From assembly GCF_003334405.1 (NCBI RefSeq), contig NZ_QOWM01000008.1: a stretch of 64,000 bases of DNA. The stretch is one strand, 5' to 3'. The first letter of the stretch is position 1. The number at the start of each line of letters is the position of its first letter. Shown here piece by piece: positions 32,263 to 37,095 of the stretch. The stretch comes from Escherichia coli (GTDB lineage Bacteria > Pseudomonadota > Gammaproteobacteria > Enterobacterales > Enterobacteriaceae). Made by a program: the position numbers and the translations under genes. The notes below the pieces were generated by a model. The model was given only the letters and a program-made list of their open reading frames with translations, did not search any database and was not told the origin of the DNA.

Positions 32263-32292
32263 AAAGGGTCGCGAAAGCGGCCCTTTTTTATT
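32263..32292 (+). terminator. topA rho-independent terminator
   Basis: aaagggtcgcgaaagcggccc followed by ttttttatt. Confidence 0.6.
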
Positions 32293-32419
32293 GCATATTA
32301 TTTTTTCTTCACACCTATACACTAAGGCTATAAATGATATAGTGGTTATAGTTAGCACCTTTTTTATTATTAAATCGTATTAGTCACCCGCCAGGTGTGA
32401 CGAAAAAACGATGTTCTGA

Positions 32420-33418
<999 letters not shown>

Positions 33419-33434
33419 TTTCTTGCGTTATTTT

Positions 33435-33475
33435 CGGCACCTTTTATGTAGCGAAGGTGCCGGAATATATTCTCT
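33435..33475 (+). terminator. Candidate cysB terminator
   Basis: cggcacctt-(10 nt loop)-aaggtgccg followed by T-rich gaatatattctcttttgtt. Confidence 0.4.
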
Positions 33476-33736
33476 TTTGTTACTTATTTCTATACCGTGC
33501 ACAATATTTTTATCCCTCATATTTATAGGGTAAATTACCTGTAAAGTAGTGTCTAATTACCCGCCTCGCAAACTCCAGTTTTCAAATATCTATTTCAGGT
33601 CAAAAGATTGAATTATTCACTGGAGACGATTCGTAAATTCGCTGGATTTTTGACTAAAGTTTCTTTAGGATTTGTCTCATCGTATGATTAATTACACCAA
33701 TCGTTCAACGTCTTGCTGATAAGTGATGGCGATTAT

Positions 33737-33877
33737 ATGAGGTTAGCAATGCCTTCTGGAAATCAGGAACCCCGCCGCGATCCTGAATTAAAACGTAAAG
33801 CCTGGCTGGCGGTTTTTCTTGGTTCTGCACTTTTCTGGGTGGTTGTCGCACTGCTGATTTGGAAAGTGTGGGGATAA
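33737..33877 (+). CDS. ymiA: Small membrane protein YmiA (46 aa)
   Basis: ATG 33737; MRLAMPSGNQEPRRDPELKRKAWLAVFLGSALFWVVVALLIWKVWG; too short for the ORF track. Confidence 0.6.
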   Translation: MRLAMPSGNQEPRRDPELKRKAWLAVFLGSALFWVVVALLIWKVWG

Positions 33878-33879
33878 CT

Positions 33880-34047
33880 ATGGTCGGTCAGGAGCAACTG
33901 GAGTCGTCACCATTATGCCAGCATAGTGACAATGAAACAGAAACGAAACGGGAATGTTCCGTCGTTATTCCAGACGACTGGCAACTAACATCGCAGCAGC
34001 AAGCCTTTATAGAACTGTTTGCTGAAGATGATCAGCCGAAACAATAA
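33880..34047 (+). CDS. yciX: Small protein YciX (55 aa)
   Basis: MVGQEQLESSPL... inside ORF 33859-34047; ATG 2 nt after ymiA stop. Confidence 0.6.
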   Translation: MVGQEQLESSPLCQHSDNETETKRECSVVIPDDWQLTSQQQAFIELFAEDDQPKQ

Positions 34048-34160
34048 TTATCATCATTCTTATTACCCATTTTTAATGAATTAAAGGGCTTTTAATACAC
34101 CGCAGCAATAACAGCTTGAGTTATCTCAACACAAAATAATAACCGTTAAGGGTGTAGCCT

Positions 34161-34256
34161 ATGATCAACACAAATATGAAATATTGGTCCTGGATGGGCG
34201 CGTTTTCTCTGTCGATGCTCTTCTGGGCCGAACTCCTCTGGATCATTACTCACTGA
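34161..34256 (+). CDS. Candidate 31-aa hydrophobic small protein MINTNMKYWSWMGAFSLSMLFWAELLWIITH
   Basis: ATG preceded by aagggtg Shine-Dalgarno; single predicted TM helix; followed by terminator at 34264-34293. Confidence 0.35.
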   Translation: MINTNMKYWSWMGAFSLSMLFWAELLWIITH

Positions 34257-34263
34257 TCCTTGA

Positions 34264-34293
34264 CCCCGCTGCGGCGGGGTTGTCATTTGCTTT
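34264..34293 (+). terminator. Rho-independent terminator after the 31-codon ORF
   Basis: ccccgc-tgcg-gcgggg followed by ttgtcatttgcttt. Confidence 0.45.
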
Positions 34294-34419
34294 GCCACAA
34301 GGTTTCTCCTCTTTTATCAATTTGGGTTGTTATCAAATCGTTACGCGATGTTTGTGTTATCTTTAATATTCACCCTGAAGAGAATCAGGGCTTCGCAACC
34401 CTGTCATTAAGGAGGAGCT

Positions 34420-37095
34420 ATGTCGTCAACCCTACGAGAAGCCAGTAAGGACACGTTGCAGGCCAAAGATAAAACTTACCACTACTACAGCCTGCCGCTT
34501 GCTGCTAAATCACTGGGCGATATCACCCGTCTACCCAAGTCACTCAAAGTTTTGCTCGAAAACCTGCTGCGCTGGCAGGATGGTAACTCGGTTACCGAAG
34601 AGGATATCCACGCGCTGGCAGGATGGCTGAAAAATGCCCATGCTGACCGTGAAATTGCCTACCGCCCGGCAAGGGTGCTGATGCAGGACTTTACCGGCGT
34701 ACCTGCCGTTGTTGATCTGGCGGCAATGCGCGAAGCGGTTAAACGCCTCGGCGGCGATACTGCAAAGGTTAACCCGCTCTCACCGGTCGACCTGGTCATT
34801 GACCACTCGGTGACCGTCGATCGTTTTGGTGATGATGAGGCATTTGAAGAAAACGTACGCCTGGAAATGGAGCGCAACCACGAACGTTATGTGTTCCTGA
34901 AATGGGGAAAGCAAGCGTTCAGTCGGTTTAGCGTCGTGCCGCCAGGCACAGGCATTTGCCATCAGGTTAACCTCGAATATCTCGGCAAAGCAGTGTGGAG
35001 TGAATTGCAGGACGGTGAATGGATTGCTTATCCGGATACACTCGTTGGTACTGACTCGCACACCACCATGATCAACGGCCTTGGCGTGCTGGGGTGGGGC
35101 GTTGGTGGGATCGAAGCAGAAGCCGCAATGTTAGGCCAGCCGGTTTCCATGCTTATCCCGGATGTAGTGGGCTTCAAACTTACCGGAAAATTACGTGAAG
35201 GTATTACCGCCACAGACCTGGTTCTCACTGTTACCCAAATGCTGCGCAAACATGGCGTGGTGGGGAAATTCGTCGAATTTTATGGTGATGGCCTGGATTC
35301 ACTACCGTTGGCGGATCGCGCCACCATTGCCAATATGTCGCCAGAATATGGTGCCACCTGTGGCTTCTTCCCAATCGATGCTGTAACCCTCGATTACATG
35401 CGTTTAAGCGGGCGCAGCGAAGATCAGGTCGAGTTGGTCGAAAAATATGCCAAAGCGCAGGGCATGTGGCGTAACCCGGGCGATGAACCAATTTTTACCA
35501 GTACGTTAGAACTGGATATGAATGACGTTGAAGCGAGCCTGGCAGGGCCTAAACGCCCACAGGATCGCGTTGCACTGCCCGATGTACCAAAAGCATTTGC
35601 CGCCAGTAACGAACTGGAAGTGAATGCCACGCATAAAGATCGCCAGCCGGTCGATTATGTTATGAACGGACATCAGTATCAGTTACCTGATGGCGCTGTG
35701 GTCATTGCTGCGATAACCTCGTGCACCAACACCTCTAACCCAAGTGTGCTGATGGCCGCAGGCTTGCTGGCGAAAAAAGCCGTAACTCTGGGCCTCAAGC
35801 GGCAACCATGGGTCAAAGCGTCGCTGGCACCGGGTTCGAAAGTCGTTTCTGATTATCTGGCAAAAGCGAAACTGACACCGTATCTCGACGAACTGGGGTT
35901 TAACCTTGTGGGATACGGTTGTACCACCTGTATTGGTAACTCTGGGCCGCTGCCCGATCCTATCGAAACGGCAATCAAAAAAGGCGATTTAACCGTCGGT
36001 GCGGTGCTGTCCGGCAACCGTAACTTTGAAGGCCGTATCCATCCGCTGGTTAAAACTAACTGGCTGGCCTCGCCGCCGCTGGTGGTTGCCTATGCGCTGG
36101 CGGGAAATATGAATATCAACCTGGCTTCTGAGCCTATCGGCCATGATCGCAAAGGCGATCCGGTTTATCTGAAAGATATCTGGCCATCGGCACAAGAAAT
36201 TGCCCGTGCGGTAGAACAAGTCTCCACAGAAATGTTCCGCAAAGAGTACGCAGAAGTTTTTGAAGGCACAGCAGAGTGGAAGGGAATTAACGTCACACGA
36301 TCCGATACCTACGGTTGGCAGGAGGACTCAACCTATATTCGCTTATCGCCTTTCTTTGATGAAATGCAGGCAACACCAGCACCAGTGGAAGATATTCACG
36401 GTGCGCGGATCCTCGCAATGCTGGGGGATTCAGTCACCACTGACCATATCTCTCCGGCGGGCAGTATTAAGCCCGACAGCCCAGCGGGTCGATATCTACA
36501 AGGTCGGGGTGTTGAGCGAAAAGACTTTAACTCCTACGGTTCGCGGCGTGGTAACCATGAAGTGATGATGCGCGGCACCTTCGCCAATATTCGCATCCGT
36601 AATGAAATGGTGCCTGGCGTTGAAGGGGGGATGACGCGGCATTTACCTGACAGCGACGTAGTCTCTATTTATGATGCTGCGATGCGCTATAAGCAGGAGC
36701 AAACGCCGCTGGCGGTGATTGCCGGGAAAGAGTATGGATCAGGCTCCAGTCGTGACTGGGCGGCAAAAGGTCCGCGTCTGCTTGGTATTCGTGTGGTGAT
36801 TGCCGAATCGTTTGAACGAATTCACCGTTCGAATTTAATTGGCATGGGCATCCTGCCGCTGGAATTTCCGCAAGGCGTAACGCGTAAAACGTTAGGGCTA
36901 ACCGGGGAAGAGAAGATTGATATTGGCGATCTGCAAAACCTACAACCCGGCGCGACGGTTCCGGTGACGCTTACGCGCGCGGATGGTAGCCAGGAAGTCG
37001 TACCCTGCCGTTGTCGTATCGACACCGCGACGGAGTTGACCTACTACCAGAACGACGGCATTTTGCATTATGTCATTCGTAATATGTTGAAGTAA
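34420..37095 (+). CDS. acnA: Aconitate hydratase A
   Basis: 891-aa ORF. Confidence 0.97.

Follow-up and report, generated by a model that had tools for sequence, protein, structure and literature searches.

The open reading frame of 31 codons at positions 34161-34256 (+ strand) is, with a probability of about 0.9, the translated gene ymiC (b4741), whose product is an inner-membrane protein of 31 residues with a single membrane pass. The ORF lies in the window, that is, the whole analysed stretch of 64,000 nucleotides of Escherichia coli DNA (contig NZ_QOWM01000008.1). The gene has had a name, an annotation and experimental validation since 2018; the original prediction, which had proposed a hydrophobic ORF with its own translation signal and terminator upstream of acnA, is correct and is not new. 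The case of ymiC means that a genuine gene of only 31 codons can be recovered by a tool-free reading of the sequence alone. The genes and signals around the ORF are as follows.

33737-33877, + strand: ymiA (b4522), encoding a 46-aa small membrane protein, the first gene of the operon (RefSeq; NCBIfam NF000536, 96.8 bits; PhoQP-dependent promoter upstream of the operon, PMC11429745).
33880-34047, + strand: yciX (b4523), 55 aa, the second gene of the operon (RefSeq annotation).
34148-34154, + strand: Shine-Dalgarno-like AAGGGTG of ymiC (sequence; predicted anti-SD duplex of -6.4 kcal/mol; GGTG nearly invariant in the orthologs).
34161-34256, + strand: ymiC (b4741), CDS (exact match to the RefSeq CDS; NF041484 and PF23694; published SPA and GFP data; frame-specific purifying selection).
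34261-34293, + strand: predicted intrinsic terminator of ymiA-yciX-ymiC (terminator scan; fold; hairpin in 72 of 79 species, covarying).
34420-37095, + strand: acnA, the downstream neighbour (ORF and annotation; own proximal promoter P2 beyond the ymiC terminator).

The ORF extends from the ATG at 34161 to the TGA at 34254-34256, and its 31-aa product is MINTNMKYWSWMGAFSLSMLFWAELLWIITH. Across 32289-34589, the window and MG1655 do not differ at a single base, so that subtraction of 1,301,411 from an MG1655 coordinate gives the window position, and b4741 (MG1655 1335572-1335667) corresponds to 34161-34256. A 721-nt query around the ORF was matched in 5422 of the 5426 complete E. coli genomes, and the RefSeq label at the matched E. 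coli locus is ‘small membrane protein YmiC'. The curated profiles agree with this label: residues 3-31 cover positions 2-30 of the 30 in the NCBIfam YmiC equivalog NF041484 (66.3 bits, with the cutoff of 42; E = 1.2e-18), and residues 1-31 cover the entire Pfam profile PF23694 (positions 1-31 of 31; 87.4 bits, i-Evalue 4.8e-25). The ORF had originally been described as unlisted, which holds for the track supplied at that point, limited to ORFs of at least 60 aa, but not for RefSeq, where it is annotated as ymiC.

Two of the checks suggested at the outset, ribosome profiling and tagging at the chromosomal locus, are already in the literature. VanOrsdel et al. 2018 include the exact YmiC sequence and coordinates among the small proteins whose synthesis they confirmed with a chromosomal SPA tag, so that the tagged product was detected, and state that ymiC was already positive in a tetracycline ribosome-profiling screen (PMC6001520); the published profiling signal is positive in a later study as well (PMC11429745). 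The conjecture that the peptide might match a small protein known from ribosome profiling is thus borne out, and that protein is YmiC. According to the later study, a 2024-25 preprint, low Mg2+ raises both the ribosome footprints and the transcripts of ymiC, GFP-YmiC is found at the cell periphery, i.e. at the membrane, and growth and morphology stay unchanged, under the conditions tested, when ymiC is deleted or overexpressed (PMC11429745). The family matches, the SPA tag and the peripheral GFP fusion together support the reading of the ORF as a translated single-helix membrane peptide (PMC6001520, PMC11429745).

Judging by the pattern of substitutions, the YmiC peptide is under purifying selection across the Enterobacteriaceae, in this reading frame only. 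The orthologs were collected by scanning one genome per species with a degenerate DNA pattern, which returned 97 stretches; approximately 85 of these came from roughly 20 Enterobacteriaceae genera, and approximately 9, from unrelated phyla, matched by chance and were left out. The pattern fixes K7-W11 and F15, so the invariance of these positions is partly circular, but an independent phmmer search, run exhaustively against 1.84 billion representatives, which yielded ten relatives with the common core KYWSW..F..S.LFW, shows the same residues there. Four of these ten relatives are found in the cysB-ymiA-yciX-ymiC-acnA context, a gene order that is kept in Kosakonia, Enterobacter, Yokenella and other genera; upstream of ymiC, a yciX homolog is present in 74 of the 80 orthologous loci, as is a YmiA ortholog (74 of 80). 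Salmonella and Klebsiella are absent among the pattern-scan matches, which reflects the strictness of the pattern rather than absence of the gene, because the Rfam consensus for this locus, discussed below, carries the ORF.

In all 80 unique orthologous core sequences, the stop codon lies 25 codons from K7. In the same set, S18 and W22, both of which lie outside the constraint imposed by the pattern, are invariant, L20, F21 and W27 are nearly invariant, and position 24 holds a polar residue, Q or E, throughout. For codons 16-31, the part outside the pattern, dN/dS is 0.36 in frame but 0.66 and 2.15 when the frame is shifted, and the entropy at the three codon positions (1.19, 0.53 and 1.41, respectively) is highest at the third. 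The ymiC frame is open in all 80 sequences, whereas each of the other five frames is interrupted by stops in 20-62 of them. Codon-level conservation, another of the checks suggested for this ORF, is accordingly present as a coding signature across about 80 Enterobacteriaceae species. An additional copy of ymiC, identical to that of E. coli, occurs on a 454-bp contig with a coverage of 1.3 in the assembly of Terrisporobacter mayombei DSM 6539 (Clostridia); this contig is almost certainly E. coli contamination of the assembly.

ymiC is the third and last gene of a ymiA-yciX-ymiC unit that is induced by low Mg2+ in a PhoQ-dependent manner from a promoter upstream of ymiA. The RefSeq mapping bears out the predicted series of three consecutive small same-strand genes between cysB and acnA, namely ymiA, yciX and ymiC. 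The operon is supported by reporter data, because the region upstream of ymiA drives PhoQ-dependent expression, whereas the activity of the region immediately upstream of ymiC is negligible (PMC11429745). A sigma-70 scan of the cysB-acnA interval found no sigma-70-like promoter site on the + strand. The scan for PhoP boxes (KGTTTA-N5-KGTTTA, with up to 3 mismatches) is uninformative because the candidates upstream of ymiA (33651 and 33662) all have 3 mismatches and the 182 matches obtained compare with about 137 expected.

The unit is followed by a GC-rich hairpin and a T-run. The stem (34261-34282) starts 4 nt past the ymiC stop codon and consists of 9 bp, six of them GC pairs, with a GC core at 34264-34279 and the loop TGCG; the tail after the stem, up to 34293, is TCATTTGCTTT, and the U-tract that follows the 9-bp stem and 4-nt loop reads TCATTTGCTT. 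A perfect stem with a U-rich tail is found in 72 of the 79 species, beginning at the median distance of 5.5 nt past the stop codon. The sequence of the stem varies from genus to genus (CCUCGC/GCGGGG, CCCGGC/GUCGGG, GCCCGGC/GCCGGGC, CACCCCGG/CCGGGGUG), so it is the structure itself that is conserved. ymiC had been credited with a terminator of its own; the hairpin and the T-run are indeed located where they had been placed, but the better reading is that they terminate the ymiA-yciX-ymiC operon as a whole, given that the region upstream of ymiC is nearly inactive in the reporter assay (PMC11429745). The Term-seq data of Adams 2021, obtained in LB, list no 3' end at the ymiC hairpin and none between MG1655 1333823 and 1335835, so that termination at this hairpin is a prediction.

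The U-tract of the E. coli ymiC hairpin (34283-34293, + strand) contains an interruption (UUGUCAUUUGCU). In other Escherichia species and in most of the genera, the corresponding tract is UUUUCUUUU or a longer run, and an A-tract often flanks the stem on its 5' side. Judging by this interruption, the E. coli terminator may be leakier. In a few E. coli strains, IS1 is inserted at the extreme 3' end of ymiC (e.g. EC931, NZ_CP049118.1, locus 762-1551), which alters the C-terminus of YmiC (99-nt CDS, WP_127534809.1) and splits ymiC from the terminator and acnA.

The same stretch of DNA is covered by an Rfam family and contains conserved elements in the ymiC leader.

34088-34290 (203 nt), + strand: full-length match to Rfam RF02079, ‘Enterobacterial sRNA STnc180' (cmscan 198 bits, gathering threshold 50, model positions 1-208 of 208).
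34096-34111, + strand: leader block TACACCGCAGCAATAA (= TACACnnCAGCAATA), with almost no variation in its columns of alignment A2 (77 species).
34116-34129, + strand: leader stem-loop TTGAG-TTAT-CTCAA (structure-aware count against shuffles; part of the Rfam consensus structure).

The RF02079 match spans the ymiC leader, the whole CDS and the terminator, and the RF02079 consensus itself encodes an intact 31-aa YmiC, MINTNMKYWSWIGAFSVSILFWAELIWIVFH. Within the leader, the stem is found at the same offset in 94% of the 71 unique orthologous segments, and the stem score is at least 9 in 66% of the segments compared with 2% of the shuffles; there are 30 distinct inner stem sequences, with the pairing kept. 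RNAalifold predicts no pairs on the MAFFT alignment of the leader; because differences in loop length mis-register the stem in this alignment, the structure-aware count against shuffles was used instead. In both the Rfam consensus structure and the E. coli MFE fold, the TACACC (34096-34101) of the invariant block pairs with GGTGTA of the Shine-Dalgarno region (34151-34156), and the block can form a duplex of 6 bp or more with the Shine-Dalgarno region in 46% of the orthologs compared with 11% of the shuffles. This conserved pairing suggests that translation of ymiC might be gated by sequestration of the Shine-Dalgarno sequence. Such a conserved leader structure of ymiC, with a possible role in the control of translation, was not found stated in the literature searched.

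Taken singly, the ORF, the Shine-Dalgarno sequence and the hairpin are not above chance for intergenic DNA. Short ORFs are abundant, with 72 of at least 20 aa in the 4-kb region; the AAGGGTG that had been proposed as the gene's own Shine-Dalgarno sequence is present 6-8 nt before the ATG, but it is only a moderate match, with a duplex energy in the top 8.8% of the 2135 ATGs of the window and far weaker than that of the acnA AGGAGG (-12.1 kcal/mol); and the fold of the hairpin (-18 kcal/mol) has a z-score of only -2.5 against shuffles. All these values would suit a chance intergenic ORF with a fortuitous Shine-Dalgarno-like motif and hairpin. What places the ymiC ORF above chance is its conservation in about 80 species together with the published protein evidence: the frame-specific conservation, the matches to curated HMM families and the tagged protein reported in the literature already refute the chance reading, which retains practically no probability. 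The GGTG before the start codon is nearly invariant across the orthologs in the 77-species alignment. A different objection, that the 203-nt stretch is primarily a regulatory sRNA (STnc180) or a dual-function RNA pairing with targets, so that the ORF is incidental or secondary, is very improbable, even though it can point to the full-length 198-bit RF02079 match, to the conserved non-coding features of the leader (the invariant block and the covarying stem-loop), and to the origin of STnc180, which first surfaced in Salmonella in screens based on Hfq co-IP and on promoter/terminator pairs (PMC2515195). However, Sittka 2008 detected no small RNA for STnc180 but only signals of 500-2000 nt, and judged it to be a likely processed mRNA (PMC2515195); species of this size are consistent with a roughly 590-nt operon transcript. 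The locus does not have the makeup of a discrete non-coding sRNA: it contains an intact 31-codon ORF, also in the Rfam consensus, the substitution pattern is of the coding type, the YmiC protein is detected (PMC6001520), and independent promoter activity is missing in that the reporter with the ymiC-upstream region is nearly silent (PMC11429745) and the + strand lacks a sigma-70-like site. Because the consensus encodes YmiC and the signals of Sittka 2008 looked like processed mRNA, the best reading of the sRNA label of STnc180 is that a small-protein cistron was historically misclassified. The identity of the STnc180 ‘sRNA' family with the ymiC cistron was not found stated in the literature searched.

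The remaining alternative concerns acnA: ymiC could be mainly a cis-acting uORF or leader, such that a ribosome at its stop codon hinders the terminator and thereby sets the read-through into acnA, of transcription driven by PhoQP or started at a distal acnA promoter, with the peptide being secondary. The short and conserved gap between the stop codon and the stem, as well as the interrupted E. coli U-tract with the leaky terminator that it suggests, would fit this scheme; a hairpin right after the stop codon is, however, common at the ends of ordinary operons. A distal promoter P1, reportedly described by Cunningham in 1997 about 407 nt upstream of the acnA ATG, would put ymiC inside a long acnA leader. 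The distal P1 (-407) was not found in the literature search, which confirmed only P2, with the transcription start at -50 (PMC2760140), i.e. about 34370 in the window. The ymiC-acnA pair is among the candidate uORF pairs of Adams 2021, but the Rho-independent 3' end in that study (MG1655 1335835, window 34424) lies in codon 2 of acnA, downstream of the P2 start, and not at the ymiC hairpin, on which it is therefore uninformative. Also against the scheme, antiterminator pairing is absent from the consensus structure of RF02079; it is the amino acid sequence and not just the length of the ORF that is under purifying selection (S18 and W22 are invariant); and the YmiC protein accumulates and inserts in the membrane (PMC6001520, PMC11429745). 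Because acnA has its own proximal promoter, in a region that is conserved past the terminator, and because the peptide is under selection, a purely cis-acting role of ymiC is unlikely, although some read-through into acnA may occur.

The region between the ymiC terminator and acnA has conserved elements of its own. The block at 34318-34368 (+ strand), ATCAATTTGGGTTGTTATCAAATCGTTACGCGATGTTTGTGTTATCTTTAAT, which immediately precedes the acnA P2 start, hardly varies between genera (alignment A1) and presumably represents the acnA regulatory region. Inverted repeats that overlap one another are conserved in the acnA 5' UTR (CCCTGA..TCAGGG, 34374-34391, and CAGGGCTTCGCAACCCTG, 34386-34403; + strand), and the 3' end at 34424, four bases inside acnA, implies an acnA 5' UTR fragment of about 55 nt.

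Within the operon, YmiA and YmiC are probably paralogs, i.e. diverged duplicates, to judge from their transmembrane segments. The segment of YmiA (KRKAWLAVFLGSALFWVVVALLIWK) can be aligned gaplessly with that of YmiC (KYWSWIGAFSVSILFWAQLIWLALH), and the residues K, W, F, S, L, F and W, conserved in both, occupy matching positions, yielding the common motif K-x3-W-x3-F-x2-S-x-LFW. In a profile comparison with hhalign, the 17 gapless columns score 29.05 (probability 94.6%, E = 7.2e-8), compared with 9.8 +/- 2.6 (maximum 18.35) for 300 column permutations and 12.3 for the reversed profile, and none of 200 trials in a stricter control reached this score (maximum 20.15); the comparison involves short hydrophobic segments and a YmiC set retrieved by pattern. 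The gapless alignment and the score above all the controls make the two proteins look like diverged duplicates, which would be a simple reason for the silence of the single deletions. In the literature searched, paralogy of YmiA and YmiC was not found mentioned, and the paper that treats both proteins uses neither ‘paralog' nor ‘homolog'.

Many YmiA orthologs have the N-terminal extension MISDVDCMRLAMPSG, and in E. coli, the matching YmiA frame is open from a TTG at 33713 (MLISDGDYMRLAMPSG...; window 33713-33877, + strand). Going by this comparison, the annotated start of the 46-aa YmiA at 33737 may not be the sole start used.

As for function, YmiC most likely acts through helix-helix binding to a larger membrane protein, by analogy with other small membrane proteins under PhoQP control. 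The Kyte-Doolittle maximum over 19 residues is only moderate, 1.54 at residues 12-30. The topology would be N-in/C-out, with K7 and the aromatic belt of KYWSW at the cytoplasmic interface and the helix extending approximately from W11 to W27; the invariant S18 and the E or Q at position 24 would form a buried polar face. YmiC might act redundantly or jointly with its apparent paralog YmiA. A broader scheme, tentative and possible rather than probable, combines these features: YmiA and YmiC would be diverged duplicates that use one helix face (K-x3-W-x3-F-x2-S-x-LFW) to bind the same target or each other, the TACACC leader helix would gate the translation of ymiC, and STnc180 would be a structured, translationally controlled cistron.

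Comparison with known systems places the ORF as follows. From the YmiC family (b4741; NF041484; PF23694), it does not differ in sequence, coordinates, length or context. STnc180 (RF02079) and ymiC are the same locus of about 200 nt and have in common the nested stem-loop, the helix between the block and the Shine-Dalgarno sequence, and the terminator; the difference lies in the classification, Rfam typing STnc180 as a non-coding sRNA whereas the evidence on ymiC makes it the 3' cistron of an operon mRNA that codes for proteins. YmiA (b4522; NF000536; PF22868) is, like YmiC, a small membrane protein with presumably one membrane pass, and both are expressed from the same PhoQP-dependent promoter, but YmiA has a charged N-terminal extension of roughly 20 residues and a WKxWG tail, the two proteins belong to separate families in both Pfam and NCBIfam, and overexpression of YmiA delays growth and elongates the cells whereas that of YmiC has no effect (PMC11429745). 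With leader peptides and uORFs of the MgtL, MdtU, TnaC and PyrL types, ymiC shares a short ORF that ends before a hairpin and a larger same-strand gene downstream; unlike these, it is followed by a gene that has its own promoter past the terminator, and it encodes a conserved, stable membrane peptide. A further comparison is with the PhoQP-regulated small membrane proteins that bind larger ones, such as MgrB, which acts on PhoQ, and MgtS, which acts on MgtA and PitA. YmiC resembles MgrB and MgtS in size, in the predicted single transmembrane helix, in the PhoQP-dependent induction by low Mg2+ and in membrane localisation; there is no sequence similarity to either, so the likeness is one of functional analogy only.
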